NCBI GenBank assembly: GCA_964455675.1
Contig: CAYVYK010000005.1
Coordinates: 1-64,000 of the forward strand
Direction: 5' to 3'
Origin: an uncultured Methanosarcinales archaeon
GTDB lineage: Archaea; Nanobdellota; Nanobdellia; Woesearchaeales; CAYVYK01
Length of the DNA stretch: 64,000 bases
The translations under genes were made by a program, and so were the position numbers. The notes beneath the pieces are model-generated. The model was not told where the DNA came from and made no database searches. It saw only the letters and a program-made list of their open reading frames with translations. Of this stretch, positions 8,678 to 61,419 are shown piece by piece. Numbering within the stretch: the first letter of the stretch is position 1; every line of letters starts with the position of its first letter.

Positions 8678-9844
8678 ATGGAAAAAACAACCCTAGAAAT
8701 ACCAAAAAAATTTCAAAATGGTTTTCCTAGAGATTATCAGAACACTTTGCCTAATTGGGGATTTTTTTCAAGAGAAGATTTTGAAGCTAATCGAGGAAAG
8801 CTTTTGCTTTTAGATATAGACTTAGATCGGTACTGCTCCTTGCATTGTCCTGATTGTTTTAGGCAAGACAGTGCAGTAGATGATGCGGAGGATAAGAGAG
8901 ATTTAAGTTTTGGGGAATTGATTAAAATCATTGAGGACGGGAAAAAACTCGGGTTAAAATATGTTAAGATTTGTGGTGTTGGCGAACCAACGGAAAGCAG
9001 GAAATTCTTGCCGTTTGTTGAAATAATGACTAATATGAGTATAGGTACCGCAGTCTTTACAAAAGGGCAAGGATTAGGTAATGATGATGTTGCAAAAAGA
9101 TATCATGGGCGATATGGAATAAACACCGCTCAGGAATTAGCAGAGAGAATGTATCAACTGGATGTTAGTTTCATGTTGGGTTTTCATTCTTTTGATCCTG
9201 CAATTCAAGATCATGTTGTCAGAACACCAAACTATGCACAAATAAGAAATACTGCTTTAGAAAATTTAGTCAATGCTGGATTTAATAATTCGAATCCTAC
9301 ACGACTAGCTTTTTGTAATGCACCAGTTAGGAGCTCAACAGCAGATGATGCTTTCCCAATTTATATTTGGGCAAGAGAAAGGAATATTTATCCTGTAACA
9401 GCAGTATTAATGACGAGCGGGAAACAAATAGACCCTGAATTTCTAAAACAAAATGATTTAACACATGAACAAAAAGTTGAACTATGGACAAATATCTATT
9501 CATGGAATATTGAACATGGTTTTCAAAAATTAGACGAAATCGAAGCAGATGGAATTTCGTGTTTGCCTGGAGGTCATCCGTGTAATCAATTAAGAGCCGG
9601 ATTATACATAACTATGAAAGGCAATGTTGTAGGTTGTCCTGGTTACATTGAAAGCCAAGGAAATGTAAGGAAACAGAGTCTTGCAGAAATTTGGGAGCAA
9701 AGCAAAACAAGGCAAATTGCTGGAGATAGATTTAATACTGGCTGTCCTCCAAAAGAAGGCATAACAATTCCAACGACGCTTTATGCAGAAGTTTTATCCA
9801 ATTTGCAGAGCAAGTATCGTTCAAGAGAACGTGGGGCTCAATAA
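8678..9844 (+). CDS. Radical SAM enzyme with SPASM/twitch-like C-terminus
   Basis: CSLHCPDC (CxxxCxxC), GVGEPT, then C..GNVVGCP..GNVRKQSLAEIW..C; GGAG RBS. Confidence 0.9.
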   Translation: MEKTTLEIPKKFQNGFPRDYQNTLPNWGFFSREDFEANRGKLLLLDIDLDRYCSLHCPDCFRQDSAVDDAEDKRDLSFGELIKIIEDGKKLGLKYVKICGVGEPTESRKFLPFVEIMTNMSIGTAVFTKGQGLGNDDVAKRYHGRYGINTAQELAERMYQLDVSFMLGFHSFDPAIQDHVVRTPNYAQIRNTALENLVNAGFNNSNPTRLAFCNAPVRSSTADDAFPIYIWARERNIYPVTAVLMTSGKQIDPEFLKQNDLTHEQKVELWTNIYSWNIEHGFQKLDEIEADGISCLPGGHPCNQLRAGLYITMKGNVVGCPGYIESQGNVRKQSLAEIWEQSKTRQIAGDRFNTGCPPKEGITIPTTLYAEVLSNLQSKYRSRERGAQ

Positions 9845-9894
9845 AAAAATAAGAGAGAATTCCCGTTTTGTTCTAGAAAATTGAATTTAATTGC

Positions 9895-10044
9895 ATATAG
9901 CATCGGAATTTAACGAAGCTGAATTTCCCACGAGTCTCGGCAACCCCCAAGAATCGTGCTGGAAATTCAATTGGGTAGAGCAGGGGAAATCGCTTGGCGA
10001 TTTAGGTGACACCGACCCTGCGAACCGTTAAATTCCTGTTAAGT
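9895..10044 (+). repeat. attC-like element D (copy 2 of 142-bp repeat)
   Basis: Near-identical to element B; ends GTTAAGT (GTTRRRY). Confidence 0.8.
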
Positions 10045-21600: not shown

Positions 21601-22507
21601 TGTCAAAACTGGTTTTTATGGACCTGGCGTGCTCCATCGTTCCTTCAAATCCGTATGATATTTCAGAAATGTCCTTGTCATCGAGGTTTACTTCCACCTG
21701 CTGCAGCGTTTTGAGCTCGGTTTCTCCATTGACAACTGCTACGACTTCTCCGCCTTCTCGCTCCTCGATATGTGGTGCCTCAACGATCGGTTCGGCAATT
21801 TTTAGAGTTCCATCATCAACGGCTGGTGGATACTCAAGAATTTCAAGTTTCTTTCCTTTGAGTTCAAACAGGTTTTGTACGATGTTGTTGTGCTGGTCGT
21901 TTGTGATTCCTGATTCTGGTTTGTCCTGGATATACTGGGTGATTTTCTGAACGTTTTTTGCTGCGCTTTTCATGGCTTCTGGATCATTCTCGTACCGGTC
22001 TGTCATGGTTTGTGCGTAGGATTTCTTTGGAACATGATTCGGATCAGGATTGTATGCCTGGTCTCCTCTCTCGCCGTAATGGTCCGCCCATATTTTGAGT
22101 ATTTGTGGGTTCTCGTCGTAGTATTTTGGAGCTCCAAGGCCGTTGCTTCCCTCAACGGATTCAAGGAATACGCTGCGGAGTTCGTCGGAGTTTGCCGCTC
22201 CTTCTTTGTATACTTGCTGTGCGATCGTTGATCGTAGTTTCTTCGCATTCTCTCCAGTTCCAGTGATGCTTTGTTTGATCATGTCTCGTTTTGCGGGATC
22301 CTTGAAATCTTCTGGTTTCATCGTTTGGAGTGCTGTTTGGATCTCTTGTTCGTTACCGCTCGAGAGTGTTGTGCTTAGATCCGGTGGCGGCGTAGTATCC
22401 CCTTCAACTCCATGTACTGAGTGAGGCCCAAAGATGCTAATGAGTATGATCACAATATAGACTCCCATGATGATGCCAAGGGGGATGTGGTGGTGGAAGC
22501 GGTTCAT
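18614..22507 (-). CDS. Large secreted/surface protein (1297 aa) with an internal duplication
   Basis: N-terminal signal or TM helix; acidic beta-rich body; duplicated GADR..LR(I/V)D.EGRI..(K/R)GL(I/L)G..NGE..IKD.AFFA(R/K)N module. Confidence 0.85.
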   Translation of the reverse strand: MNRFHHHIPLGIIMGVYIVIILISIFGPHSVHGVEGDTTPPPDLSTTLSSGNEQEIQTALQTMKPEDFKDPAKRDMIKQSITGTGENAKKLRSTIAQQVYKEGAANSDELRSVFLESVEGSNGLGAPKYYDENPQILKIWADHYGERGDQAYNPDPNHVPKKSYAQTMTDRYENDPEAMKSAAKNVQKITQYIQDKPESGITNDQHNNIVQNLFELKGKKLEILEYPPAVDDGTLKIAEPIVEAPHIEEREGGEVVAVVNGETELKTLQQVEVNLDDKDISEISYGFEGTMEHARSIKTSFDNSNILSLNVNGEDYTFKNKGEGEVVIPLEGPRIGEAEIQVNGNSESISVQKADEEVHHLVTDCKNCVTAFNLREEYPMIVSGSGEQKQHFVDDAYGLDIDVDLGKITSEVMYKDRIDSEFDLSLTGKHLETVSGIVEDGKDALVFNTGPIKEGTLNIGRNVQDERGQPQILGLITTEPSTEPVFRHIGAGAFTPEPDQQILIAGGFEQGAKPIEEENPSASLGREYSAYIKQITEGKKLEFTESFTSLQESLGTAWTAYTKNKEAGTLIIDNDDVATIANTKIQGPSYNDFGGDTAQVNAQSTSPDTYITVRTRDAGDQMGFFGLGEKFFTVNMVGEKLGPSESPQEEALITYQEVDKKSVEADENNAEVEGTTFRVSRTSTDPQVTMEVTTEVPRDIHGSVSGPVDERTGNHVYISVEAEDDQSIQKDGMKLTIGQGLECDKQIKTDDGKTVGSVEKTEKAVVGGHTYVAGRENTIASDADVYTMNGEFTLGRQSKALGGADRKVLLHDQKDTGLRIDDEGRIYSKLGIHIGDFDYDPSQGKYVANSRKGLIGDLMSDAQEDILNGEQAGLIIKDQAFFARNKADWRDKSITIMEKRSQTTPSPQNTQGQVYYMGDEEVIISGERSDALFGADRRIISTKRDGKVTDTNLRVDSEGRIFDKEQLSFQTGELVWDQEYGRYYAVPKRGLLGEQLMTLDEMSLFNGEDNCLFIKDPAFFAKNEETWRNGEDITIDSELEAVDKALTPAPSAEQVATKIVEDVATKGPDQKRSLTKLASATRTESAGSNWREGKVDPQKHAVVGFNGAHVLDMWSMEDALGYFEDQDTDTLNTRGIGGVDKKAEESAKFYTAAQAEIGTETLGRDVVLHSAGFDAFKGALQENPNVYKDSFVMGFGTTSQKEGEWPWPEGTVRTYVSLHVGTPGTVPFEGKAGGGDTININLKDLGISRLHNNAPRELDENPKLQELFWMGAEANRRGVSSQELRQAIEQRFRIKTS

Positions 22508-39358: not shown

Positions 39359-39751
39359 ATGAGAATAATTCTCGATACGAACTTCCTTCTCATACCCGGC
39401 CAGTTTGGCGTCGACATCTTTGAGGAGATAGACCGGATTGCGAATTTTCCCTATACCCTTCATGTGGTGAGTGCCACGATCGCTGAACTCGAGAGACTGA
39501 TGGGAAATCAAAGACAGAAGGTTGTGGATCGTCGGGCGGCAAAGCTTGCGCTTGACCTTCTGAAGAAGTATCCGGTGAATATCATGCCTGTACCAGAGGA
39601 GGTTCTCGCTGATGATTCAATAGTGGAGATCGCGAAGGGCGCTGACATCCTTGTGGCGACGAATGATCGTGAGCTCATCGCTCGCCTCAAGCGCCTCTGT
39701 GTGCGAATCATCAGGCTACGTCAGAAAAAGCTTCTTACGATTGTGGGATGA
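39359..39751 (+). CDS. PIN-domain ribonuclease (Fcf1/Utp24-like)
   Basis: IILDTNFL, ADD, VATNDREL, IRLRQKK. Confidence 0.92.
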   Translation: MRIILDTNFLLIPGQFGVDIFEEIDRIANFPYTLHVVSATIAELERLMGNQRQKVVDRRAAKLALDLLKKYPVNIMPVPEEVLADDSIVEIAKGADILVATNDRELIARLKRLCVRIIRLRQKKLLTIVG

Positions 39752-39791
39752 GGCCACAAAGCATTTAAAACAACGTTCTTTCTTCGTGGAT

Positions 39792-41555
39792 ATGCCAATA
39801 AAACGTTCGCTCATCTGTTCCACGCTTGGGCATGTGGATCATGGGAAGACATTGCTCCTTGATAGGATTAGGGGCAGTGCTGTCCAGCGCGGTGAGGCGG
39901 GTGGTATCACACAGGCTATTGGCGCATCCATCATTCCGATTGAGACGATCCGAAAAGTCTGTGGGCCTCTGCTTCTTTCGTTGAAGCGAGAGATCACAAT
40001 CCCTGGTCTTCTCTTTATTGACACTCCAGGTCATGCCGCATTCACATCTCTTCGGAAGCGCGGTGGTAATCTTGCGGATATAGCGATTGTCGTCGTTGAC
40101 ATCAATGAAGGTCTTATGCCGCAGACTGAGGAAGCTATCGAGATTTTGCGGCAGGCGAAGACTCCATTTTTGATTGCAGCGAATAAAATCGATTTGATCC
40201 GTGGCTGGACACCGTCTTCTTCGATACTCCTCGAGACTCTCACGAAGCAGCCAAGGGAAGTCATTGAGGCTTTCGATCGTAAGCTGTATGAGTTCGTGGG
40301 TCAGTTCTATGAGAAATTTCAGATGAATGCGGACCGTTTTGATCGTGTTCAGGACTATACAAAACAGGTTGCGATTGTTCCAACGTCTGCAATGACTGGC
40401 GATGGAATACCAGAACTTCTCATGGTTCTGACAGGTCTTGCTCAGAGATACCTTGAGGGTTGTCTTGAGTGCGAACCAGATGGTCCGGGGAGAGGAAGCA
40501 TTCTTGAGCTTCGCGAGGAGAAAGGTCTTGGTATGACTGCTGATGTTATTTTGTACGATGGAACGCTGCAGGTTAACGATGTGCTAGTTGTCGGTACTCT
40601 CGATCAGCCTTTTGTGACGAAGGTGAAGGCACTGTTGTTACCTAGTCCGCTCATGGATATGCGAGATCGTAAATCCAAGTTTCACGGAGTTAAGCAGGTC
40701 TGGGCTGCGACAGGTGTCAAGGTCTCCGCTCCTGATCTTGATAAGACAGTCTCTGGAATGCCGGTTCATGTTGCCTCGCATGATGATACGGAAAGCGTGA
40801 TGAAAGCGGTGCGTGCTGAGGTTGAGGAAGTCCTGATCCAGACGGACGAGAATGGAGTAATCGCGAAAGCTGATACGCTGGGTAGTCTTGAGGCTTTGAG
40901 TGTTCTGCTTCGTCATCATGGGATCCCGATCATGAAAGCGATGATTGGTCCGATTGGGAAGAAGGACGTGCTCGATGCGGAGGCGAACGCGCAGAAGGAT
41001 CCGCTGAATGCCGCGGTGCTTGGCTTCAATGTTCCTGCAGAGGGTGTGGAATCGTCAAAAGCAGTGATCTTCGCACACAATGTGATCTATCGGCTGATTG
41101 AGGATTTTCAGGGATGGCAAGCTCAAAAGCGTTCGGCGCTCGTCCAGGCAGAACTTGGTGGTCTTGTTCGGCCAGCGAAGATTGAGGTATTGCGAGGGTA
41201 TGTATTCCGGCAGTCGAATCCTGCAGTATTTGGGATATCTGTTTCCGCAGGTTGTCTGGAGGCGCACGTGCCAATGATGAATGCGAACGGTGATGTTGTT
41301 GGCACGGTGAAAGCAATCCAGGCAGAGCAGGAGAATGTGGAGAAGGCAGAGCTGAATCAGCAGGTTGCAGTTTCGATGGATGGAGTTATCATGGGCCGGC
41401 AAATTCAGGAGGGCGATACCCTCTATGTGGATGTGCCTGAGGATGATTTCAAGAAATTACGAGATCATAAGGAATATCTTTCCAAGGGAGAAGTTGAGCT
41501 GTTGCGTGAGATCGCCAAAATAAAGCGGAAAGGTAATGTTGTGTGGGGTGTCTGA
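39792..41555 (+). CDS. infB: Translation initiation factor aIF5B (IF-2)
   Basis: GHVDHGKT, EAGGITQAIGA, DTPGH, NKID. Confidence 0.98.
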   Translation: MPIKRSLICSTLGHVDHGKTLLLDRIRGSAVQRGEAGGITQAIGASIIPIETIRKVCGPLLLSLKREITIPGLLFIDTPGHAAFTSLRKRGGNLADIAIVVVDINEGLMPQTEEAIEILRQAKTPFLIAANKIDLIRGWTPSSSILLETLTKQPREVIEAFDRKLYEFVGQFYEKFQMNADRFDRVQDYTKQVAIVPTSAMTGDGIPELLMVLTGLAQRYLEGCLECEPDGPGRGSILELREEKGLGMTADVILYDGTLQVNDVLVVGTLDQPFVTKVKALLLPSPLMDMRDRKSKFHGVKQVWAATGVKVSAPDLDKTVSGMPVHVASHDDTESVMKAVRAEVEEVLIQTDENGVIAKADTLGSLEALSVLLRHHGIPIMKAMIGPIGKKDVLDAEANAQKDPLNAAVLGFNVPAEGVESSKAVIFAHNVIYRLIEDFQGWQAQKRSALVQAELGGLVRPAKIEVLRGYVFRQSNPAVFGISVSAGCLEAHVPMMNANGDVVGTVKAIQAEQENVEKAELNQQVAVSMDGVIMGRQIQEGDTLYVDVPEDDFKKLRDHKEYLSKGEVELLREIAKIKRKGNVVWGV

Positions 41556-42040
41556 TGTTATTCGTCCATAATTTGCGGATTCTAAACACCAGGGAGCGGT
41601 CTGATATTGCTGATGCGGTTAAGGCACAGTGGGGTATTCCCGACGTTCCAAGTGTTCTCCTGCTGAACAACAGGAATGATGTATTCACCATATCCCCCGA
41701 TATCCAATCGGTCACGCTGCAGAATCTACATATCAACTCGCTTGGTTTGTACATTGGTGAATGGCGTGAGGGCAACTTGCGTCTTTCCATGGAGGGTTCT
41801 CATCTTCTGGGTCCGCTGGCAAAAAAGAATTTGATTGATCTTACAAAGGATCAGACGGAAAGCTGGCTGAAGGGTGATCCTTTGCTTCTGGAACGGGGAT
41901 CTGCGGAGGGCTTTCAACTTGTCGCGTATCCCCATCCGATTACCGGCAAGCGTGATTTTCTTGGATGCGGAAGGTATCGGGAATCGACGCTTATCAACTT
42001 TGTTCCCAAAGCTCGGCGAGCCAAGGAACCAATCGTCTAA
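41555..42040 (+). CDS. NIP7/PUA-like ribosome biogenesis protein
   Basis: SLGLYIG, RLSMEGS..LGP.A.KN, WLKG, NFVPKARR. Confidence 0.7.
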   Translation: MLFVHNLRILNTRERSDIADAVKAQWGIPDVPSVLLLNNRNDVFTISPDIQSVTLQNLHINSLGLYIGEWREGNLRLSMEGSHLLGPLAKKNLIDLTKDQTESWLKGDPLLLERGSAEGFQLVAYPHPITGKRDFLGCGRYRESTLINFVPKARRAKEPIV

Positions 42041-42052
42041 TTAACTCTACAT

Positions 42053-43138
42053 TCAGAGGGTAAGCTGTCGGAATCTGTACTCATAATACTTGTTGCGGAG
42101 TGTGTGGAGGGCTCTTCCCTCGATGAGTATTCCAAAAAGATTGGTGATCGCCCTGCCTTTCTCAAGTGTCAGTAAGTATCCTTTATGTGAAACATGAACT
42201 TCTCGCAGTGGTTTCTTCTGCAGGAGACGGGCAACATTCTTCCCTGTGGCAAGACCATGCGCTAGTGCGATTTGTGCTGTGGGTGGCTGCGACCTGTTCA
42301 TGCCGTTCGTGTTTGCCGCGTCCCCGAGGACAAATAGGTCCTTCTTGGCCTGCAGATATTTGTCGACGCGGATTCGTCCGGTATCATCCATTGCCAGCGG
42401 TTCATCCATGTTAGGAATGCTAGCCATTATACCCGCGCACCAGATGATCGTGTCTCCAATTACTGTCTCAGAGATTCCATGCACAACTCCTTGCGTAATC
42501 TTCTGCACCGCAAATCCTGTCCTTACACGGATGCCTGCGGTACCAAGTATGTGTTCCACAACTTTAATGATCCTCGGTGGGAATCCTGATAGTATGCTAG
42601 TATCCCGCTGAAGAATGATGATCTCAGACATTCTCATTGTTGACCGTTGATGCTCTAAAATCTGAAAAGCGACTTCAATACCTGCAGGTCCGCCACCGAT
42701 GATGATCGTCCGGTGTGGTGCTTTTCCAACTGTTGGTTTCTTCAGTTGTTTTTTTATCGCTTCCACGTGCTGGTATTCTCTAAATTCAAATGAGTGTTCT
42801 TTTGCCCCTGGAACCATGGATGAATTACTCATTGATCCTGTTGCTATAACGAGAATATCATATGGGATGGCTTTCTTTCCGCAGCGAATGATGTGCTCCT
42901 TGGTATGTATCGCTGTGACTTCTTGTGTGTGGAGTCTGATGCCTCTAAGGGATTGCATGTCCGTATAAGCACGCATGATTCTCATTTCTTGTGTAAGAAT
43001 GTCAGGTAGCCATGGTGTGAAGAGGAAATGGCCTTTTTTTGTGATGAGAGTGATGTCAACGTTTGCGTCTGCGTGCTTGCGAAGTGCTGAGATGAATGCA
43101 AGGCCTGCAAATCCTCCTCCGATGACGACGATCTTCAT
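42053..43138 (-). CDS. NAD(P)/FAD-dependent oxidoreductase (type II NADH dehydrogenase-like)
   Basis: GGGFAG, YDILVIATG, GGGPAGIE, IWCAG, LGD, TAQIA. Confidence 0.9.
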   Translation of the reverse strand: MKIVVIGGGFAGLAFISALRKHADANVDITLITKKGHFLFTPWLPDILTQEMRIMRAYTDMQSLRGIRLHTQEVTAIHTKEHIIRCGKKAIPYDILVIATGSMSNSSMVPGAKEHSFEFREYQHVEAIKKQLKKPTVGKAPHRTIIIGGGPAGIEVAFQILEHQRSTMRMSEIIILQRDTSILSGFPPRIIKVVEHILGTAGIRVRTGFAVQKITQGVVHGISETVIGDTIIWCAGIMASIPNMDEPLAMDDTGRIRVDKYLQAKKDLFVLGDAANTNGMNRSQPPTAQIALAHGLATGKNVARLLQKKPLREVHVSHKGYLLTLEKGRAITNLFGILIEGRALHTLRNKYYEYRFRQLTL

Positions 43139-43267
43139 GTCATAAACACATTCCTATCCGTTTATAATTATACTGTTTTATGCGCTGCTCGTCGTACTCT
43201 ATCCAAACCTATAAATACCTGCCAATGCACAGATGCACGTACAGTCTATAAGAAAAGAGGTGTAAGG

Positions 43268-44515
43268 GTGCGACAGCTGTATGTGATTATTGCCTTGTTT
43301 GTTATTCTCTGTTCTGGCTGTGCGACCGTTGAAGTGACTGAGCAACTGAAGCCCCAAGGTGAATATAACCTAATAATGGACCTTACGGTGCCCGCAGAGA
43401 ATCTGGTAACTCTGCGGGAGAACCTGCAGTTGGTTCCGGGTTTGGAAGGCATAGCCGAGGTTACATCGACTGATTCCTCCTTAAGAGTAGCTTTCTTTGG
43501 TCTTTCCTATGGACAGCCAAGGAATTTTTTTCGAAATACTTCATTCGGCGATCCTGATGGTCTGCTCCCACGCGTAGACTATCTTGGTCAAGAACTGCAT
43601 TTCCCGTATTATATCCACACGTACGAATATCATGTTGTACCAGCATTATTCTCAAATCCGACGGGAGGAGTGCTGAGCGCAGAAAAATACATTGAGGATG
43701 AGATCAACCTTCTGGATTCCTCACAGGAAGATCTGATTGTTGAGAGGATGAATCGCATGTTTCAAAATGATTCGATTGAACTTCTGGTAGTCACTAAACC
43801 CATGGTGAATTATGATGAATTTCAGCCGGAATTCATCCAGCAGTTTGATTTTGTGACGAAGCGCTATGTCATGCTGTTCGTCTCAAGGAATGCAACCGCC
43901 TCAATCTGCATGATCGATACAAATCTCTTCTTTGGAGAGGCAGTTCCGCTCGAGATCACATCGCTTGGTGCGCGCTTTGCGGAGAACTGTTCACGAAATC
44001 TTTCAAAGAATATCATGGATGTCACGGAACATCTTGATCAACTGTTTATCCAGCAGGACATTATAGTACTGGATGCGGAGGAGCAAGGTATTGATTTCTC
44101 TAATCTGCCAAGTATCCAGTACACCGTAGACCTGTTTGGAGACGTGACAGATACGAACGGTGAGGTCCTTGATAGGCGAAGGGTTCGCTTTGATATCGAT
44201 CCAGCGGTGGAGATGGGATACAGGGTGCAGTTCCGTGAGTTTATCCTTGCATCATATTTCGGAAAGAATTACATTTGGTATGTTGGTTTGATATGTCTTT
44301 TACTACTGTTTCTCATGATTATTGTGCTTGCTACAAGGATCCGGGAATACCTAAGGCCGAGGGAAAGACCAATGCCCGATGGTCCGAATCCCCAAGCGCT
44401 TGTGTACGTCAGGCGAGGTCGCATGTGTGGCATTTCAGATGAGGAGATCTCTCGAAGGCTCATTGCAGCTGGTTGGTCTAAGGCCGATGTGGATAAGGCA
44501 TTGCAGATGCTGTAA
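43268..44515 (+). CDS. Lipoprotein with C-terminal TM anchor (possible TPM-like domain)
   Basis: CSGC lipobox; TM near C-terminus; tail I..RL..AGW. Confidence 0.7.
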   Translation: MRQLYVIIALFVILCSGCATVEVTEQLKPQGEYNLIMDLTVPAENLVTLRENLQLVPGLEGIAEVTSTDSSLRVAFFGLSYGQPRNFFRNTSFGDPDGLLPRVDYLGQELHFPYYIHTYEYHVVPALFSNPTGGVLSAEKYIEDEINLLDSSQEDLIVERMNRMFQNDSIELLVVTKPMVNYDEFQPEFIQQFDFVTKRYVMLFVSRNATASICMIDTNLFFGEAVPLEITSLGARFAENCSRNLSKNIMDVTEHLDQLFIQQDIIVLDAEEQGIDFSNLPSIQYTVDLFGDVTDTNGEVLDRRRVRFDIDPAVEMGYRVQFREFILASYFGKNYIWYVGLICLLLLFLMIIVLATRIREYLRPRERPMPDGPNPQALVYVRRGRMCGISDEEISRRLIAAGWSKADVDKALQML

Positions 44516-44653
44516 TCGTTTAAACTGCAGAACAAAGCCTTTTCCGTACCTATATTGGAAAACGTGGATAACCTTGGAAAGACCTGAAAACGCCTGTCAA
44601 AGCCTGTAATAAAATCGTAAAGTATTTAAAGGGCGTATTCCTTGCAGAGCAGT

Positions 44654-45157
44654 ATGGGCAAAGAACCTGATTCCGACGAGAAGATGCTCGAGGAATTCAT
44701 CCAGAATCTCAATTTAAAGCATCCACGCGAATCATATGATCCGCATAGGTATCAGACGACAAATTCTCGTGAGGACGTTAAGACTGTTTTCTCGAATTTG
44801 AAGGAAGAAAAGATTCAGTCGTTAAAAGAGGCGATTGAGGATATTGAAAGCCTGATTGTCCGTCGAGAAACACTGCATAAGGAGATGATGAAGGATCTTG
44901 GAAAGATTGAGTCCGAAGTGAATGCGATCATCACAAGTATGAGCCCTAATCCGAACTTGCGTGACGCTCCCGAGGTAATGAAAGTCCGTGAGGAGCTCCG
45001 TCGGGAGATAGTTGCAGTGCGACAGATGGGTGTCAAAGAGAAGCTTGATTGTTTCCGCGATATTGCTGATTTGAAGAAGGAGCTCCGTGAGCGGGTTCAT
45101 GACTTCCGTGAGCGGGAGACACAGAACGAGGCTTTTGATAACATCATAGAGCCATAA
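44654..45157 (+). CDS. Coiled-coil protein upstream of the HerA-like ATPase
   Basis: E/K/L-rich helical sequence; TATA TTTAAA upstream; 1-nt gap to the ATPase. Confidence 0.75.
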   Translation: MGKEPDSDEKMLEEFIQNLNLKHPRESYDPHRYQTTNSREDVKTVFSNLKEEKIQSLKEAIEDIESLIVRRETLHKEMMKDLGKIESEVNAIITSMSPNPNLRDAPEVMKVREELRREIVAVRQMGVKEKLDCFRDIADLKKELRERVHDFRERETQNEAFDNIIEP

Positions 45158-45158
45158 C

Positions 45159-47087
45159 ATGGAGCGCGCAATTACAACCGAGGAGCTCTGTAGGCGTTTA
45201 AAGCCGATTTTTGGGAAGAAAATAGACCAATTGTATCTGAAGTATACTCTCACGGAGGGTCGCCGTGAGAAAGAAGAGATCGCGCAGTTTATTGCGGTCC
45301 TCTATGAGAAACACCTGGAGACAACGCTTCTCGGCGAGAAGATACTGCTCGTTCCGCCAAAGGAGAACGATGTGTCCGGAACCTACCCTCTTGGTATGGT
45401 AACATACGCTGATAAAGAATTGTATCCGTTCTGTATGCGCGACCAGGACTTGGTCCGTCACATCTGCATCACAGGTATGTCCGGTTCTGGTAAGACAAAT
45501 CTTGCTTTCCTCATCATCTCTCATCTTATCAAGAACAATATGCCGTTGATCATTTTTGACTGGAAAAAGAGCTTCCGGCCTTTGCTCAATCTTGACAAGA
45601 AGATGATGATCTTCACGATCGGTAAGAAGGAGACATCAAATATGTTCCGGGTGAATATCAACCGTCCTCCGCCAGGTGTCGATCCGACGGAGTGGATCGG
45701 GATACTCTGTGACCTGGTGAGTGAGTGTTTCTACACGAGTTATGGTGTTCATAAGCTCCTTAAGGAAAGTCTCGATCAGGCGTTTAAGGATTTTGGCGTG
45801 TACAAGGGGTCTGATAATTATCCCAATTGGTACCATATCAAAACTCGCCTTGAAGATCGTGCTGCTGAGATGCAGAAAGGTCGTTCGCATCGTGAGGCAG
45901 AGTGGATGGAGAGTGCTCTGAGAATTGCGCACTCGCTTACGTTTGGTAATTTCGGAGATGTGGTGAACACAAAGAAAGGGACGTACGTTGATGTTGAGGA
46001 CTTATTTAATATGAGGACGATCTTTGAGCTTGCCTCACTTGATACGTCGGAGAAGAAGTTTTTTTGTGAGTATGTCTTAACGTATATCTATAAATTGAAA
46101 AAAGCAAAGGTGAATCAGAAGCAGCCGTTCAACTTCTCTATAATGATTGATGAAGCTCATAACATCCTGCTTAAAGAAAAGCCTGTATTCATGCGTGAGA
46201 CGGTAACAGAGATGATTTATCGTGAGATTCGTGAGTATGGGATAGGCCTCATCTGCCTTGATCAGCATGTATCCAAGCTTTCCGAGACTGTTGTGGGGAA
46301 TAGCGCTACGTCGATAGCATTCCAGCAGATGCTACCTCAGGATGTTGAGACCGTGTCCATGGTTATGATGATCAAGGATTACAAGCAATACTTCACGATG
46401 CTTCCAGTTGGTGTTGCAATTGTCAAGCTGGCCGAGCGGTATTTCAATCCGTTCCTCATTAAGGTACCGCTTGCTGAATTCAAGAAGACAGAATACACGG
46501 ATGAGCAGATCGTTGAGCGTATGAATAAGCTCGCTCGTGATTTGATCCGTCAAAAATCGTTCAAGGAATCACTCAAGGACGACAATTTGAAGAAAGTTGT
46601 TGAAGGACTGAATCGGCTTGAGCATCTCCGTACCGAAGGCCGAGGTGACGAGAACCCTAAGGAAATGACTCCTGAAGAATACAATAGCCTCGTCGAATAT
46701 CTCTCGAGAAATGAGAATGTTCTCGAATTTCTGAAACTCGCACAGGGGAAACGGATGGGAACGACAGAATTATATACCAGTCTTGGATTGTCCACGAGGA
46801 AGTGTGATGAGCTAAAAACCGACCTCCAGTATAGGGGTTTAATTAAGGTGGAGGAGGAGCGCACTCCATCAGGACTGCGCAAGTTCATCGTCATAACTCC
46901 CAAGGGCAGGGAGATTTGCGAATACGTCACAAACCTAAAATCGGATTCCTTCAATGCGTCAAAAGGTGATGAGCCAGACGCTCACGACCCCGAGGTTTCC
47001 GAAAGAGGATCCACAAAACCATCATTGGCGAAGTCACAAAAAAGACAGTCAACCTCACATTCATCAAATAAACCATCCATAAAATAG
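45159..47087 (+). CDS. HerA/VirD4-like (DUF87) P-loop ATPase with C-terminal winged helix
   Basis: RHICITGMSGSGKT, IFDWK, IMIDEAH, REIREYG, LDQ; C-terminal GLIKVEE..ITPKG. Confidence 0.88.
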   Translation: MERAITTEELCRRLKPIFGKKIDQLYLKYTLTEGRREKEEIAQFIAVLYEKHLETTLLGEKILLVPPKENDVSGTYPLGMVTYADKELYPFCMRDQDLVRHICITGMSGSGKTNLAFLIISHLIKNNMPLIIFDWKKSFRPLLNLDKKMMIFTIGKKETSNMFRVNINRPPPGVDPTEWIGILCDLVSECFYTSYGVHKLLKESLDQAFKDFGVYKGSDNYPNWYHIKTRLEDRAAEMQKGRSHREAEWMESALRIAHSLTFGNFGDVVNTKKGTYVDVEDLFNMRTIFELASLDTSEKKFFCEYVLTYIYKLKKAKVNQKQPFNFSIMIDEAHNILLKEKPVFMRETVTEMIYREIREYGIGLICLDQHVSKLSETVVGNSATSIAFQQMLPQDVETVSMVMMIKDYKQYFTMLPVGVAIVKLAERYFNPFLIKVPLAEFKKTEYTDEQIVERMNKLARDLIRQKSFKESLKDDNLKKVVEGLNRLEHLRTEGRGDENPKEMTPEEYNSLVEYLSRNENVLEFLKLAQGKRMGTTELYTSLGLSTRKCDELKTDLQYRGLIKVEEERTPSGLRKFIVITPKGREICEYVTNLKSDSFNASKGDEPDAHDPEVSERGSTKPSLAKSQKRQSTSHSSNKPSIK

Positions 47088-47288
47088 CGAAACACAACAG
47101 CCTTTCCCTCACGCGCACACCAGCGTCAAAAAAATCGAGACGCATCCTTGCGCGTTGGAGAAATCCGCCCCACGTTTTCCCGAAAGAACCCCAAGGTTCT
47201 GTATCGGTACGACGTGAGAAAACAAGACGGATAAGGCCGGAAACGGGAAAAAACTGATTCCCGCTTCGCTGGGACACCACTGCTTCTG

Positions 47289-47332
47289 AAGAGTGAATTC
47301 TATAGGATTAAAGAGTGAATTCTATAGGATTA
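47289..47332. repeat. Perfect 22-bp tandem duplication AAGAGTGAATTCTATAGGATTA
   Basis: 47289-47310 and 47311-47332, at the left edge of the structured GC-rich block. Confidence 0.9.
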
Positions 47333-48320
47333 TAATCGGGTTCGAGACTGTCGACCCCTTCCCCACATGCCCGCCATGACCCTGGACCTCCTTCGTGAAC
47401 GCTGACCTTTAATCACTTTGTGGATTGGTTGTGGCGGGTTTGATATCAACGGGACCTCCCCCTCCTCTGGAGCGGTGCTTTCTCTACCGTGCGCTTCGCG
47501 CATGAGTAAAGACCGTGCCGCTCCTGAATATTTTCTATCTCCTGGGTAATGGAGAAGTTCTGATACTGAGGCGGCATTGCCTTCGCGCATGCGTTCCCCC
47601 CGCGCTGCCGGGTGATGCCGCCAAAAACAAATGACCGCCGCACAATCCCCTCTCGGATGATGTGTTAGTCTCTAGCCAGAACGTGCGGCGGTCATGAACC
47701 CTGCGGCACTGCTCTCGTGTAGGCGTTTCCCCCCACCGTCTCCGGACAGTGCCGCGTTGACTATCAGTAGTCTGGTGGGAGTGCTGCGGCTGGGGCCCGC
47801 AAGGCGACAGTATGCATTCCTCGCGCTGAAGGGAGCATCTGTCGCCACTGACTGAACTCCCTGCCGTTGGCCGTATGTGATTTCGGCTCGCCCGCGCCAG
47901 CGGCAGGGTGCTTGATACCCGGGCGACCACACGCCCACTGACCGAGGCTTCGTCAGCCGACGGAGCCTCCCTTCGGGGGCTGCACGGACAAACACGATGT
48001 TGCCACAGCATGAGTATCATCCCCTTGCTAACCTGCTTGTTGGAAACGTGGTAAGCCAGCACCGGTCGGCGAGAATGGATGATGCGATGTTCATCGTGCC
48101 GAAAGCCCCCATCAGTGTTGAATCACGCGTGGCCAGGACGCGTGTGTCGCCGTGGATGCTGTGGCGCTTGCAGCTTCTTTCGGCAGCGGCGGTTAGGCAT
48201 GGGCTCCCTTGGTCGAGGTAGCGAGACGTAAGGGTAGCGCCTGCGGGTTGGTCCTAGTTCGGGATCCTTTGCCCCCTTGCGGGGAGCCCATGCCCTGGAT
48301 CCACATACATAGTGTCCTAC

Positions 48321-48395
48321 GGGCTTTGCTCTGGGAGGGGAAGCGACGCGAAACAGTCGTCGTTGCTTACAAGGGTTCGACTCCCTTAAGGCCCC
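48321..48395 (+). ncRNA. tRNA-like domain lacking a D-stem
   Basis: Acceptor GGGCTTT/AAGGCCC; T-arm AAGGG-TTCGACT-CCCTT; 8-bp arm AAGCGACG/CGTTGCTT with a 12-nt loop. Confidence 0.6.
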
Positions 48396-49006
48396 GTGCC
48401 TTGGCAGGTTGCGCGGTCAACCGTTGACGGGTCTGCCAAGGCGTCACGTCATACTTGGGAGGTAGGTTCGATGAGCCAAGTCGTAAGGAAGCGCGGCACG
48501 AAGATGGAAGCATTGGTCGCAATGTCAACGAAGCGGGATGACCAGACGGATCGTGACACTGGTCATTGCCTGCAGATGGGGCAGACCCCATCCCACGTTC
48601 CCGTCAACCTGCCGGTCCAGCGGAGGCAGCTCAAGGCGAACAGGATCCACAGGGGCGAGCTTCCGATGGATTGAACCTCCCGGTTTGGATGTTCTCGTGG
48701 CTGTTCCCCAGTCACACCCTCGTCCGGGTCTTCGGCGAGGTGGTCGTCAGCCCTGCAATTATCGCGGGGCTCAGGTCCGGCGCTTGCCGGCCAAATGAGG
48801 GCCTTGGCTGAAATGGCCTCGGCTTTCACTCTGTGGCACAATGGTGTGCCGGTGCAGCGAGGGCGAAGTGCGGGTGTGTAACCTGCAAAATGCGTATGTG
48901 GAAGGTGCCCTCAAAATCCATCCCCGGGCATTCGCCATGAACCGTGTCGGATGTGCGGGGATCATTGAACTCCTCAGGGAATTCCCTGTTGACATAGATC
49001 GCAGCC

Positions 49007-49420
49007 TCTTTCCCCTCCGGAGCGCACCAGGCTTGGTATCCCTGTGATTCCTCCCTGGTGCCCTCTTTTGGGAATCCCCGGTCCGATGCCACGGGCCGCT
49101 GCTTGGCACTGGCGCCGATGACTACGAGAAACGTCGCACCAGTGCCTCTTGCCGATTGCCCAGCGATGGCTGGTTGGTCGATAGTGCTTCTTTCCCCTCC
49201 GGAGAGCACCGGGACGCCTTAGGCACTCGGTGCCCTCTTTGTCCGCTGACCGGGTCCTAGGCGAGGACCTGTCCCTCCATGCGGGTATCGGTGAAGACCG
49301 TTAAGCCGGTACCCGCCGTGCCGATTGCCCAGCGATGGCTGGTTGGTCGATAGTGCTTCTTTCCCCTCCGGAGAGCACCGGGATGGTGGTCCGAGCGGCT
49401 CCTCCTGGTGCCCTCTTTGT
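49007..49420. repeat. Three copies of TCTTTCCCCTCCGGAG(A/C)GCACC-variable-GGTGCCCTCTTT
   Basis: 49007-49068, 49150-49242, 49319-49420; copies 2 and 3 share 65 identical nt. Confidence 0.9.
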
Positions 49421-50807
49421 ACGTATTCGTGTTCCTCCCCGAAGGAGGTGCCTGCTCACCGAGGGTGGGCACCTCCCATGGGACACGTTGTTGATAGATG
49501 TCTCCCTTCGCTGGACGCGCTCGCGTTCCAGAAGAACGGCACCGATCCCGGCAAAGCTCGGTGCCGTCGTGCCCCTGATCCGTCGCTGACGGCCCTCCGT
49601 TCCCCTGATGGGCGAGCCATCCCCCGCCCAACGCCCTCATGGCTCGCCCAGTTTGATTCTGATCCGTTTGGCCCGACGGTGGAGTTCGCCATTGAGGCCT
49701 GTTGGTGGAGTGGCGACGCGGGAAGGCACCAGTGTGATCATCATCACACTGGTGCCGCTTGACTGTTCATGCGTACCCGTGCGGGGCGCATTGGGTGCTT
49801 CACCTAGAGATGGTGAGGCGGATGCGGCAGGGCGGCTCGGGACTAGACTGCCACGGCTCGAGCCGCCCATTGAGAATTCCGGACGGATTGATCCGTCCGT
49901 TCACGGCGATGATACCACTTTAGGAGATGGAGTATGGTGCTGAAATTCAATGGATGAGGCCCCAAGTGAATGGAGAGCGCGGACGTTTGCTTGGGGCGCG
50001 ATGGGAATTGACCGCGCGGTGATCACACCGAAAGCCGATGTGGGTATCGGCAGAGAGGAGAATACTTCTCGGTATGATTGTCGCAAGGGTACCTGGTTTG
50101 TCCGGACAGGCTGCCAGGTGAATGCTGACGACTGTGTCGGCACAATGGCTGGGGTGCATCCAAATATCAAGTCAGAAGGGTGTGCCCCCTAACCGTTGAG
50201 GGAAGAGCGCAGGTCAGAAGTGTTCTTGCACATCTGAGTTCTTCCGCATCCTGAAAGCGTGCATAGCGCGCTTGGACCAGAGGGAGGCGGTCCAGACCCC
50301 TTGGGTGCTGCGCGAGCCGCGGTCTCCCCACCCGATGAAAAGGGATCTAACCGCGAAAAAGCCTTACATCTTGGTGTTCGTCAATAACTCAAACAATCAT
50401 CACGTCCCATACGGACGCGGATCGAAAAAAAAAGGTGTTCGTCTAGCCACGGTCGGGAGCTGATCGCTTTCCCGCCCGAAAGGACGTCAGCGGACCTCTT
50501 CCTCCCAGGGGTCCGCCCTGTTTTTGTTCCAACAAGGCCAGTTGAGGAGACCTTATGGAGCACTGTCTGATGTTGTCCTCTGAGAATCGCACTATCATCC
50601 GCTTCGGATGAAACACACAAATGGACTCGCCATGGTTCCGTGGACCGCCGGGGCGAGTGAACACAAATACCGGCTAGCCGCGTGCAAGCGTCCGCGAAGT
50701 CACAGGCGTTATGCGGACGCGCGTGGACGAGGCAGGGGACAATAGCGCAGGAGTCCGGCACGCCATCGTCGGACATGGCGCATGTACCCTGATCCGCTGC
50801 CCGTCCT

Positions 50808-50873
50808 GGCTCGTCGTTCAGCGCCTAACAAGGTGCACTGGGTACTTAACCCTGAACGACGAGCCTTTTTTTT
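50808..50873 (+). terminator. Terminal stem followed by T8
   Basis: GGCTCGTCGTTCAG (50808-50821) pairs with CTGAACGACGAGCC (50852-50865), then TTTTTTTT. Confidence 0.65.
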
Positions 50874-51073
50874 GGCATATTAATTACAATATAGAAAATA
50901 AATAAGCTAAAAAATATCTAAACACCCGGTTCCTCGCCATCCTCCGCATTTGTTATGACTCAGAAAACAGAGTATTGTCAATCATAATTGGTATTCAATT
51001 AAGTCTTATCATTAATCATCTGGCAGGATCGTTGATCGATATCTTTAAAAACCCCCTCCAATTCTTTCGCACT

Positions 51074-51619
51074 ATGTTCTACAGAACGCTATTAAAGGAC
51101 CATATACGGGTTCCACCTACGTTATTTGCTGAATCACTTGATAAGGCGATCATTGCGGAAGTAAAAAAGAAATACGAAGGTTACATCGACAAGGATTTTG
51201 GTGTTGTCATTGACGTTGAAAAAGTGGAAGAGATAGGAGAAGGTGTGATTATCCCCGGAGATGGGGGAGCATATCATGACACCACTTTTAGTCTATTCAC
51301 CTTTAAACCTGAATTGCAGGAAGTCGTAGTCGGGAAGATCAAGGATATTGCCGACTTTGGTGCATTTATCTCTCTAGGTCCTATGGAAGGAATGATCCAC
51401 GTTTCCCAGACAATGGATGACTTTGTTTCCTTCAGCAAAGAAAAAGTGTTATCCGGAAAAGAATCAAAACGCACTCTTAAAATAAATGATCTCTGCCGGG
51501 CAAGGATAATTGCAGTATCCTTTAAGGATATCGCCTCACCAAAGCTTGGTCTTACAATGAGGCAAGCAAGACTTGGAAAACTTGAATGGCTCGACGAAGA
51601 ACCAGCAAAGAAGAAGTGA
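51074..51619 (+). CDS. rpoE1: DNA-directed RNA polymerase subunit E' (Rpo7)
   Basis: IIPGDGGAY, FGAFISLGP..GMIHVSQ, LGLTMRQ. Confidence 0.97.
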   Translation: MFYRTLLKDHIRVPPTLFAESLDKAIIAEVKKKYEGYIDKDFGVVIDVEKVEEIGEGVIIPGDGGAYHDTTFSLFTFKPELQEVVVGKIKDIADFGAFISLGPMEGMIHVSQTMDDFVSFSKEKVLSGKESKRTLKINDLCRARIIAVSFKDIASPKLGLTMRQARLGKLEWLDEEPAKKK

Positions 51620-58993: not shown

Positions 58994-59068
58994 GGATAGT
59001 GGGATCTATCTATTCCTCTATCTAAAATCTTTTAAAGAGGACAATCCGACTGAATCACAACATCGGGG

Positions 59069-59605
59069 GTGAAAAAGTTGGATAGTGAGACTAGAGGTAG
59101 TTCCATTAAAGAGGACGTTCAGTCCATTCAAGAACAGCTTGATGATCACCTAACCGCGATCAACGAAAATTCTAATGAAATTGAGGGTAATTATGAGTTT
59201 CTATGTGAATTGGAGGAAAAAATTGAGAAATTGAACAGTAGAATCGATGAACTTTTTTGCTTAGTGCAGAATAGGCAGGCTGATCGTAAACTGGACACCT
59301 TTGCCCCGCAATACGATCCAAAACCTCTTAATCGTGCAGAAAAAGAGGTATTTGCGGCTATCTACTGGTTAAATGAAACAAAAGAAGAATTCAATTATCC
59401 TCAAATTGCTGAAAAAGCAAAAATATCGGAGGAATTGGCACGATTTTATGTGACTGCATTAATCACAAAAGGGATCCCATTAAAAAAGCATTACGTTAAT
59501 GGAACAGTCATGATTCATATAGAATCATCCTTTAGGGACGTTCAAAGGCAAAAAAATGTTATAAAACTGAATCCAGCGCTTTTTAATTCCTTAAATCACC
59601 AGTAG
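59069..59605 (+). CDS. Coiled-coil protein with C-terminal HTH
   Basis: LDDHLTAINENSNEI coiled coil; LNRAEKEVF..YPQIAEK..LITKGIP. Confidence 0.75.
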   Translation: MKKLDSETRGSSIKEDVQSIQEQLDDHLTAINENSNEIEGNYEFLCELEEKIEKLNSRIDELFCLVQNRQADRKLDTFAPQYDPKPLNRAEKEVFAAIYWLNETKEEFNYPQIAEKAKISEELARFYVTALITKGIPLKKHYVNGTVMIHIESSFRDVQRQKNVIKLNPALFNSLNHQ

Positions 59606-59872
59606 AGCCGAGATCTTACTGTAATCATTTATACAATCAATGATATATAATTATTTATATAATTACTACTATAGGATATAATAATAAATCGATATTTTTG
59701 AGATAACAAATTACTAAAACTATTCAGAATTAATAGTAAACACTGATAAAAACTTTTTGGGATTCTGACTTTTCCCACATGTATCTTCATATTAATCAAT
59801 ACCTTTATGCGATGTGTTTTTTATGCTTAAAAAAACTGGTTTATAGCCATTATTAGACCTATATTCAATAAA

Positions 59873-59900
59873 AGTACGCATTATATACAAAAAGCGAACT
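59873..59900. other. dif-like Xer recombination site
   Basis: AGTACGCATTA-TATACA-AAAAGCGAACT: 11-6-11 layout, arms 8/11 inverted, about 90 bp before the xer gene. Confidence 0.65.
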
Positions 59901-59989
59901 ATCCATCACGTTAAGAATCAGAACTCCTCAACGGGTGCTAATACGAACTTTTAAATACTTAATATGTGTGCATTTTTAGGGTTAGGCAA

Positions 59990-60592
59990 ATGGCTTCCAG
60001 ACGCCCAAAAAGGCTACCAAAGTACCTCACAAGAGATGAGTTGCAAAGGCTCTTAAACGCTGCGGGAAGACCGATCGATCGCTTAATTATCCTCTTCCTG
60101 TACAACACAGGAGCTCGTGTCTCAGAGCTCGTTAATTTTCGAATTGAAGACATTGACTTCGAAAACCAGTCAATAACTATTTTTCGTGGAAAGGGAGCCA
60201 AAGACCGTACTGTGAACGTTTCAGAAGAGTTCCTAAATGAGCTTAGACGGCATATAAAAGACCGAAGAGAAGGTATTTTATTCAATAGTAACTGGAAACG
60301 AGCTTTCACGCAGAGAGCAATACAGAAAAAGATAAAAAACCTTGCGAGAATAGCGAAACTACCCTATCTGCATAAAATAACGCCACACACACTTAGGCAC
60401 ACCCATGCAGTGCATTCCCTTCAAGCTGGAGTCAATATAATCTCCATAAAGAAGCATCTGGGCCATGAAAACCTGAAAACAACAATGGTTTACACTGAAA
60501 TCAGTGATGAGGTTGTTAAACGTGATTATGAAGTCCATAAACCATTCAAACTTAAGAGAGAATCGGATCAACAAACGCTAGATTCCATTTAA
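59990..60592 (+). CDS. Xer-family tyrosine recombinase (catalytic domain only)
   Basis: LPKYL, YNTGARVSE, GKGAKDR, HTLRH, LGH, TMVY: complete R-K-H-R-H-Y set. Confidence 0.92.
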   Translation: MASRRPKRLPKYLTRDELQRLLNAAGRPIDRLIILFLYNTGARVSELVNFRIEDIDFENQSITIFRGKGAKDRTVNVSEEFLNELRRHIKDRREGILFNSNWKRAFTQRAIQKKIKNLARIAKLPYLHKITPHTLRHTHAVHSLQAGVNIISIKKHLGHENLKTTMVYTEISDEVVKRDYEVHKPFKLKRESDQQTLDSI

Positions 60593-61419
60593 TCTAATCA
60601 CTCAAACAATATAAATAGAAGCTAGTTATTGTATAACATATTAATCTAAGAACCTGATCTAAAGGAGATAATCAAAAATATAGTAGATAAAATAACTAAT
60701 CCGCTACCCATAACTTACCTTATCCGGTTCCAACTCTCACTTTCTGGTGCATTCAGTGAGTTTTTATGTCAAACGCAATCAAAAAGTGAGAGTTCCGATA
60801 CTTCCACCAATAAGCGGGTACCATCTGATCAACCTCAATTTCAAATTGTCAGCCCCAAGAGTTATTGTTAGCTTCAATAATAGAACGAGCACCCGGATTG
60901 AATCGAGGGACTTCCAGTGATACTCCTCCTGGCCGGACTCTCACCCACTATACTGAATCCAAACAGATCTCCCCTTTTTGCCAATTATACCTTTCATTAT
61001 CCCTGCTTTGATAAAAAAGTGAGATGAACCACTAACTGAGTACGCGCATCCTCCTTAACTGGTTAGGCACCATGGCGCAGGTTATAGATTCTAGCTCCTG
61101 ATGTTTATAATCCGTAGTATTACCCCTTTTACCAGAATACTGCGGTCTCAAAATCAACCTCCGATACTACAGGATCATCTTTGGAGAAGACGTATGCTAT
61201 ATACGCGCCAGGTCTCAGAAAGTGAGGATTAGTCAAAATTACTCCAAACCAAAAGAATCAGTGTTATCCGCTTTTTAAACTATTTTTTCTAATATAGTAG
61301 TATACAGAATAGTAAACTATATATACTACTACCCCTGTTGTACAACCTTACCGTTTATATACATTTCCCACGCTTGCGTGGGGGCGACTAATTTACTGCT
61401 GAGGAGGAGAGGTGAGCGG

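Follow-up and report, generated by a model that had tools for sequence, protein, structure and literature searches.

What occupies some 3.5 kilobases (kb) of a gene-dense archaeal genome if it does not encode a protein? The question is raised by positions 1 to 64,000 of contig CAYVYK010000005.1 (GenBank assembly GCA_964455675.1, labelled as an uncultured Methanosarcinales archaeon), the window of this study, in which the stretch 47335-50873, located between a gene for a HerA-like ATPase and rpoE' and called the block in the following, had been predicted from its letters to be free of open reading frames (ORFs), rich in guanine and cytosine (GC) and densely folded, and to represent an undescribed very large RNA. 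The observation of a GC-rich, ORF-free and hairpin-dense block is confirmed, and the block is unusual. It is non-coding, structured and asymmetric in composition between the strands; its transcription and a function of its RNA we infer. The reading tentatively preferred here is that of a lineage-specific structured non-coding RNA of ~3.2-3.5 kb, encoded on the + strand and built as a string of local hairpins with CCUCC/UUCCCC motifs.

A GC-rich block without coding potential

The GC content is 0.558-0.636 in 500-nucleotide (nt) windows from 47500 to 50749, as compared to 0.42-0.49 on both flanks, so that the contrast originally seen (56-64% versus 42-49%) stands. Positions 49001-50000 constitute the 1-kb window with the highest GC content of the entire 64 kb (0.625), the maximum outside 47-51 kb being 0.529. 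As a wider background served the best 80 loci from GTDB species genomes, retrieved with RpoE' as probe and amounting to 1.18 Mb in total. With a GC content of ~0.60 the block exceeds every 1-kb window of these relatives' loci, and the excess over the own mean is +0.162 in the window but +0.098 in the next best of the 80 loci, none of which shows a GC spike of like size. Long GC-rich intergenic regions are enriched in structured RNAs (PMC6429828). In a genome of lower GC content, a composition like that of the block is typical of structured RNA.

The block lies in a gap of 3.9 kb, which no other in the window equals; behind it come stretches of ~1.3 and 1.2 kb that lack any ORF of at least 100 amino acids (aa). 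The longest stop-to-stop frame of the block, 195 codons, is at the level of chance (182.6 +/- 37.3 in 200 shuffles), and its period-3 power of 3.1 falls below both the 21-48 of four long coding stretches and the 7.2 of the short rpoE'-S24e stretch. No single stop-codon reassignment gives an open frame along the block. Among the 53 stop-to-stop frames of at least 45 codons, none has a Pfam match at an expectation value (E) < 0.05 or a PHROG match at E <= 0.01. Frame length, periodicity and the missing family matches speak against a protein-coding gene as well as a decayed pseudogene; the block indeed holds no credible ORF, and the decayed protein genes that were initially considered as an alternative identity of the block were looked for without result.

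Folding, strand bias and architecture

Folding was compared with chance, as the original prediction had proposed, in 200-nt windows on both strands, each against 30 dinucleotide shuffles (33 windows in the block and 49 outside). The mean z in the block is -2.64 on the + strand and -1.45 on the - strand, versus -0.64 and -0.40 outside; the block thus folds beyond its shuffles, and more strongly on the + strand. Particularly low values are reached by the 506 nt holding the six 5' hairpins (z -5.83 on + and -4.61 on -), by the windows 49600-50100 (z -3.3 to -6.2 on +) and by the last 451 nt (50430-50880; z -4.32 on +). A strand-symmetric helix finder detects 25 strong helices in the block (7.06 per kb), as compared to 1.5-2.2 helices per kb in three coding controls; 20 shuffles of the block average 7.8 helices and never exceed 14. 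At a maximal pairing span of 600 nt the minimum free energy (MFE) is -1603.7 kcal/mol for the + strand and -1455.3 kcal/mol for the - strand, and on z and MFE the + strand would be the better candidate for an RNA.

Predicted pairing is overwhelmingly local, with a span of at most 100 nt yielding -1485 of the unconstrained -1637.6 kcal/mol (91%) and with 67 top-level domains in the fold; the block therefore looks like hairpins on a string rather than an ornate globular fold. Its RNA would form a long chain of at least 25 hairpins, resistant to nucleases, and not one globular fold.

The word usage of the block differs between the strands although G and C are nearly equal (0.306 and 0.292). CCTCC occurs 15 times versus 5 for GGAGG, CCCCC 9 times versus 1 for GGGGG, TTCCCC 8 times versus 1 for GGGGAA and TCCCC 16 times versus 4 for GGGGA. 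TTCCCC reaches 2.26 per kb in the block and 0.22 per kb elsewhere in the window, which is an enrichment of ~10-fold, while CCTCC is enriched ~4-fold; taken together, UUCCCC, UUCCUCC and CCUCC are found at 2.3-4.5 per kb versus 0.2-1.0 elsewhere, about half of the enriched words lying in predicted unpaired stretches. Predicted apical loops with such pyrimidine motifs are located at 47594, 47727, 48704 and 50499.

The features of the block and its upstream cluster are collected in Table 1. The six 5' stems named in the original prediction are all present, with 13 of 13 positions paired in 47631-47643/47683-47695 and 9 of 9 in 47703-47711/47747-47755, and the hairpins at 47469 and 47803 are also part of the predicted fold of the 5' 506 nt. 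Hairpins 1 to 3 contain tandem U-G/G-U pairs, the helices 47370-47381/47427-47438 and 47570-47581/47611-47622 each with a tandem G-T pair, and hairpins 3 and 5 carry UUCCCCCC in their loops. The perfect terminal stem of 14 base pairs (bp) followed by T8 was likewise found as described, the AT-rich upstream region of rpoE' lying directly 3' of it. The left border is the point to be shifted, as the structured ORF-free stretch starts not at 47335 but already at 47088, after the upstream stop codon (z for 47088-47340 -4.16 on + and -3.61 on -).

Table 1. Coordinates of the block, its parts and the adjoining gene cluster in the 64-kb window.
Feature	Position	Strand	Description
Upstream cluster	43268-47087	+	Genes for 415-aa, 171-aa and 642-aa proteins; ATPase stop at 47087
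Structured ORF-free leader	47088-47288	+	GC ~0.5; lies directly behind the gene for the HerA-like ATPase; no T run of at least 5
22-nt exact tandem duplication	47289-47332		Core AATTCTATAGGATT, an imperfect palindrome
Palindromic 10-nt TATA-like element	47328-47337	+	GATTATAATC; left edge; candidate promoter, weak match
Six consecutive long hairpins	47370-47846	+	47370-47438, 47469-47524, 47570-47622, 47631-47695, 47703-47755, 47803-47846
Central-left body	47847-48989	+	Many stable helices, e.g. 47859-47908, 48196-48294 (13/13), 48398-48442
Three tandem modules, 170-180 nt apart	48990-49425	+	Conserved CUUUCCCCUCCGGAG, then hairpin GGAGNGCACC...GGUGCCCUC with variable tip
Central-right body	49426-50424	+	Most strongly folded part; perfect 14-bp hairpin 49725-49756
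A9 (T9 on the - strand) in AT-richer dip	50425-50433		Would stop a - strand polymerase coming from the right
10-bp hairpin with UUCCUCC loop, then T5	50490-50525	+	Candidate first terminator; RNA of ~3.2 kb
3' segment	50526-50807	+	Moderately structured; C(UUCG)G hairpin near 50600
Perfect 14-bp stem and T8	50808-50873	+	Stem 50808-50821/50852-50865, T8 50866-50873; candidate final terminator

A stretch of 65 nt is identical between modules 2 and 3. In the hairpin of the three modules one stem pair is A-U, G-U and G-C and the neighbouring pair G-C, G-C and G-U, changes that would be the expected path for a pairing kept in a + strand RNA and that amount to one or two events. An origin of the whole block from one diverged module was rejected, as a covariance model of the module (R1) and self-blastn recover only the three known copies, and hairpins 2 and 3 are not structural paralogues, their shared 14-mer standing in different predicted contexts. 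Nor do the repeats form a CRISPR array, consisting only of the three modules of 170-180 nt and the 22-nt doublet.

On the + strand T runs of at least 5 are confined to two positions, 50521 and 50866, and both follow a hairpin of the 3' part. Oligo-T terminates archaeal transcription (PMC2253867). The RNA would accordingly measure ~3.2 kb if ended by the hairpin and T5 at 50521, and ~3.5 kb if ended by the hairpin and T8 at 50873. Initiation was judged against the window's own genes. About 22 of 40 genes possess a TTTATAWA-type box that ends 20-23 nt before the start codon, so that their mRNAs would be leaderless, and 10 of 40 a Shine-Dalgarno (SD)-like word of GGAGG type, often close behind the preceding gene. 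A TATA matrix was derived from 22 sites read by eye and chosen by hand. Transcription might start at the TATA-like palindrome, behind the duplicated 22-nt palindromic site; a promoter of the block's own is plausible but weak, since GATTATAATC scores below every training TATA box. With TTCTATAG the 22-nt units include a sequence similar to one of the training TATA sites, but the units score 1.5; the unit has no other copy in the window and is absent from the 80 loci, and its doublet could represent a two-site operator or duplicated TATA-like elements. Alternatively, polymerases reading on from the upstream operon 43268-47087, which encodes the lipoprotein-like protein, the coiled-coil protein and the HerA-like ATPase, would transcribe the block, a real alternative to a promoter of its own as no T run of at least 5 lies in between.

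Several findings weigh against the preferred reading of a structured + strand RNA. The block is known as a single sequence, with no homologue in the related loci, among plasmids and phages or by way of its spurious ORFs, and therefore no covariation is available beyond one or two pairs in the internal repeats. The dense folding holds for most of the block, including the 25 helices, but not for 50200-50700, which is barely structured in sliding windows, and the - strand also beats its shuffles (the above z of -1.45, and -4.61 for the 5' 506 nt). Unpaired bases, which are A-rich in folds of the rRNA type, are not so on the + strand (A 0.288, U 0.283). While the sequence of the claimed C-TTCG-G loop near 47971 is present (CTTCGG at 47970), the predicted + fold displays 0 UNCG and 0 GNRA loops among its 21 four-base loops. 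G-T pairs had been taken as evidence for the + strand; the block helices do contain an excess of them (22 G-T versus 6 A-C, p = 0.014, 0.56 being expected from composition), but it is not specific, as comparable ratios are seen in coding controls (14:5, 14:5 and 6:5). The candidate promoter GATTATAATC scores 3.8 bits, while the lowest of the 22 training sites reaches 4.1 and their median is 8.7. Perfect pairing over 12-14 bp, as seen in many stems, would equally fit young DNA palindromes, and the dominance of local, often perfect stems speaks against an 'ornate' RNA. Of the proposed undescribed very large RNA there remains a non-coding, GC-rich sequence that folds beyond shuffles and belongs to no known family, not, however, an enrichment of tetraloops or a mainly long-range pairing.

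Genomic setting and search for relatives

The search for known families gave no match. In the whole 64-kb window Rfam 15 produced 0 matches at its gathering thresholds, rRNA, RNase P, the signal recognition particle RNA and tmRNA included, and ARAGORN detected 0 tRNA or tmRNA genes; the window as such (1-64000) holds no Rfam-recognisable RNA of any kind. Relaxing the threshold to E <= 10 for 47000-51100 gave 4 matches at chance level (best 17.9 bits versus a threshold of 39, E 0.31). In the block there was no Rfam match to GOLLD, ROOL, OLE, HEARO, group I or II introns, ribozymes, C/D or H/ACA sRNAs, and even at E <= 10 none to small-subunit (SSU), large-subunit (LSU) or 5S rRNA. The Rfam search thus upholds the assignment to no known RNA family, made earlier on the lack of rRNA, RNase P, signal recognition particle and group II intron motifs.

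Homologues were sought at the DNA level in the 80 related loci (blastn and nhmmer) and among plasmids and phages (blastn), with no match to the block; the nhmmer search that had been suggested was thereby run on the 80 loci and yielded no homologue. The large public collections were reached through the spurious ORFs only, which served as queries because gene callers often call such ORFs on RNA genes: three of them were compared with a protein collection of 5.8 billion clusters (word index) and one with a library of 1.84 billion representatives (full HMMER). Apart from a chance match to a tandem-repeat protein, nothing came up but the 158-aa entry of the window itself, which is a singleton on one contig of 114,277 bp in the protein collection. 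Further copies of the block are absent from the 64-kb window and the 80 loci by blastn, nhmmer and covariance model R1, terminal or flanking direct repeats were not found around it, and full-text searches of the literature retrieved no description of an RNA of this kind from DPANN archaea or any others. The missing relatives may reflect sampling, as no genome close to this lineage is part of the collection.

The host is, judged by sequence relationship, a DPANN archaeon of the Woesearchaeota without a close relative among the GTDB species genomes, as its RpoE' is only 64-74% identical to that of the 80 loci, nearly all of them from metagenome-assembled genomes (MAGs) of Woesearchaeota, Nanoarchaeia or Nanoarchaeota. 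Many of these 80 related MAGs carry generic 'Methanosarcinales' submitter labels. Pfam identifies genes of an archaeal chromosome in the window (aIF5B, RpoE'/Rpb7, Spt4, S24e, L10P, L1, aRF1, aIF5A, CCA-adding enzyme and FtsZ). The amino acid composition (IVYWREL 0.409) corresponds to a rough optimal growth temperature of ~48 C by a formula reportedly given by Zeldovich and colleagues in 2007.

The block is the end of a stretch of ~11.2 kb (39751-50975) which separates a PIN_9 gene (39359-39751) from rpoE'. In 71 of the 80 loci both the PIN gene and rpoE' are present, and in 63 of these 71 the gap between them is at most 300 nt (median 52, maximum 2351), the two largest gaps among the relatives being filled by ordinary ORFs. 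The 11.2-kb stretch holds aIF5B, a PUA-like protein, a pyridine-nucleotide oxidoreductase and the three-gene cluster on the + strand, followed by the block. As only aIF5B of these genes is found in the relatives' loci (1 of 80), the block is lineage-specific in position. The stretch 39751-50975 resembles a rearrangement rather than a simple mobile element, because the essential aIF5B gene lies inside.

In the cluster directly upstream, the 415-aa protein combines a lipoprotein-like signal with a membrane anchor at its C-terminus and the 171-aa protein has the look of a coiled coil, both read from the translations by eye; neither has a family match. The 642-aa protein is a HerA/DUF87 ATPase that matches CedD/VirB4-type DNA-translocase models weakly and far under all cutoffs, and a DUF87 cluster of the Nanobdellota is among its nearest Atlas clusters. 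The cluster may represent a DPANN nucleic-acid translocation apparatus. Apparent twins of the 415- and 171-aa genes at the start of the window were unrelated on comparison and were rejected. Profile searches gave no integrase-family match for the upstream genes, the closest integrase-family gene being located 9 kb off, past ribosomal protein genes.

Elsewhere in the window, a low-GC island at 59000-61000 (0.33-0.40) contains a tyrosine recombinase at 59966-60592, and another one at 5000-10000 (0.31-0.38) a double AsnC-type helix-turn-helix regulator, a radical-SAM/SPASM enzyme and a HAD hydrolase. The ORF-free stretch 4850-5130, apparently closed by a long-range helix of ~11-13 bp (CGGCAACCCCCA with TGGGGGTTGCCG), has a z of -3.60 on the - strand and -1.80 on the + strand and no Rfam match; a structured RNA of small size (~250 nt) that escapes current models may be encoded here. 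At 5281-5354 on the - strand, a weak C/D-box-like match to snoRNA models (AATGATGA ... CTGA, E 4.5, far under threshold) may indicate an archaeal C/D sRNA or be due to chance. An ORF of 1297 aa and an adjacent one of 336 aa at 18614-22507 on the - strand have no Pfam match.

Competing explanations and comparison with known RNAs

If transcribed, the RNA can be imagined, as a guess, as a scaffold or a decoy. Single-stranded UUCCCC, UUCCUCC and CCUCC would be shown in its loops and linkers, CCUCC being the anti-Shine-Dalgarno core, and these motifs would titrate G-rich or SD-like RNA or a motif-binding protein, following the logic of sponge RNAs of the CsrB type; by this analogy the motifs might be displayed to, or act as decoys for, partners that are G-rich or SD-like. 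A more far-reaching proposal, to be regarded as doubtful, is that a stable structured RNA of >3 kb, specific to an unsampled DPANN lineage, is expressed together with the neighbouring membrane-anchored HerA/VirB4-like translocase cluster, or is handled by it, and acts as a scaffold, an SD-like decoy or a cargo between symbiont and host.

The block might lack a function: non-coding, GC-rich DNA of foreign or selfish origin, or what is left of a mobile element, would have come to lie at a rearrangement-prone spot and be rich in inverted repeats by chance. This explanation, rather unlikely in our view but to be taken seriously, draws on the orphan block ending an 11-kb lineage-specific stretch where the PIN-rpoE' gap is at most 300 nt in 63 of 71 loci, on a GC content of ~0.60 beyond any 1-kb window of the relatives, on the many perfect stems resembling recent palindromes, and on the weak promoter and the missing tetraloop signature. 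It has to account, however, for a word usage that is strongly strand-asymmetric despite G = C, for a hairpin and oligo-T at the end that are oriented like the adjacent genes and for a structured, GC-richer style that starts already left of the tandem repeat. A multicopy miniature inverted-repeat transposable element or insertion sequence is improbable, as no repeats of the block were found elsewhere in the window or the loci; the block also lacks terminal repeats, its upstream genes an integrase-family match and its frames any protein remnant in Pfam and PHROG, and the retention of 3.5 kb of junk would be unusual for so compact a genome. Folded single-stranded or cruciform DNA acting as an origin, packaging site or recombination site would explain why both strands fold beyond their shuffles, why several stems are perfectly palindromic and why a DNA-translocase-like ATPase adjoins the block; such an element is nevertheless very improbable, with the + strand favoured in z and energy and the word usage asymmetric. 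Archaeal replication origins are AT-rich, and neither iterons nor repeats like origin recognition boxes beyond the three modules, nor a replication initiator gene in Pfam scans of the window's ORFs, were detected. More improbable still is an artefact of the assembly that joined a GC-rich fragment of another organism into the contig. The abrupt GC jump, the exact 22-nt duplication at the left border, which might be an untrimmed k-1 unitig overlap, and the metagenome-type contig, with one spurious ORF occurring in the protein collection as a singleton on one contig, are compatible with such an event. But two independent mis-joins within one intergenic gap would be required, the right end is natural in that the hairpin and T8 pass into the AT-rich region upstream of rpoE', GC-richer structured sequence extends to the left of the 22-nt repeat, and a GC-rich genome fragment would normally bring along ORFs and codon periodicity, of which the block has neither.

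Two other explanations retain an RNA. The almost exclusively local pairing (91% of the MFE at a span of at most 100 nt, 67 top-level domains), the row of six discrete 5' hairpins and the three tandem modules would also be expected from a polycistronic precursor, a long transcript cut into many hairpin RNAs of 50-180 nt that act singly; few promoter-like or terminator-like runs are found internally, so that any small RNAs would need processing. We consider this unlikely, as there is no match to a C/D-box, H/ACA, tRNA or other small-RNA model, the count of TGATGA in the block is 0 and the hairpins, apart from the three modules, do not belong to one repeated family. The block may, on the other hand, be a structured 3' extension of the operon 43268-47087 which affects the stability or localisation of the mRNA in cis or is a substrate or partner of the ATPase. 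This would agree with the lack of a + strand T run of at least 5 from 47087 to 50521, with a leader (47088-47288) that is already structured and a weak promoter candidate of the block, with cluster genes that are all on the + strand and all missing from the relatives' syntenic loci, and with the kinship of the ATPase, which matches HerA/CedD/VirB4-type translocase models, if far under all cutoffs, and has the Nanobdellota DUF87 cluster among its nearest Atlas clusters. Adjacency in one genome is, though, the sole link, the AT-rich palindromic repeat and the TATA-like element between gene and block suggest a separate unit, and archaeal termination does not always require T5; we rate the extension as quite improbable.

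With GOLLD, ROOL and OLE, conspicuous intergenic RNAs that are long, non-coding, heavily base-paired and without an assigned function, the block has no more than this general character in common. Among these three, GOLLD is the largest, many members exceeding 800 nt, (PMC12286853), and the block is ~4 times longer. In contrast to the block, located in a DPANN archaeon, GOLLD, ROOL and OLE are bacterial or phage-borne, and their Rfam models have no match here; they possess conserved multi-way junctions with covariation, whereas the block consists mostly of local predicted hairpins in a single sequence. An rRNA operon is equally of kilobase scale, GC-enriched, ORF-free and highly structured, with ends at T-tracts and duplicated upstream elements, but the block lacks an SSU, LSU or 5S match, A-rich unpaired bases and predicted GNRA or UNCG loops. 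Group II introns, ORF-less or nested archaeal ones included, share the kilobase scale, the structure and the paucity of ORFs, yet have no Rfam match at E <= 10, and the 53 frames contain no reverse transcriptase remnant.

CsrB and RsmZ sponges have many hairpins and linkers that show a short single-stranded motif repeatedly, here UUCCYCC/CCUCC. The CsrB motif is GGA and its length ~0.35 kb. The sponges thus differ in motif and in being shorter, and only part of the hairpins of the block carry the motif, which makes for a resemblance of logic, not for membership. Hgc RNAs were reportedly found by GC composition by Klein and colleagues in 2002 and measure tens to a few hundred nt, far less than the block; any Hgc model would be part of Rfam, no family of which matches the block. 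RNA islands discovered through the GC content of intergenic regions likewise occupy long intergenic regions with a GC content well above that of the genome (PMC6429828).

DPANN genomes are tiny and gene-dense, and a non-coding block of 3.5 kb is therefore a large investment. Should the block turn out to be junk or a mis-join, it would be a warning that GC-rich, hairpin-dense orphan blocks can satisfy every structured-RNA test based on a single sequence. If, on the other hand, the RNA is real, the size range of the non-ribosomal structured RNAs of prokaryotes would be widened ~four-fold, and an RNA of >3 kb would be the largest of its kind known in a prokaryote. The phenomenon of 'giant ornate RNA' would then extend from bacteria and phages to archaea, and the block would provide a concrete object for asking how symbiotic archaea use large RNAs.

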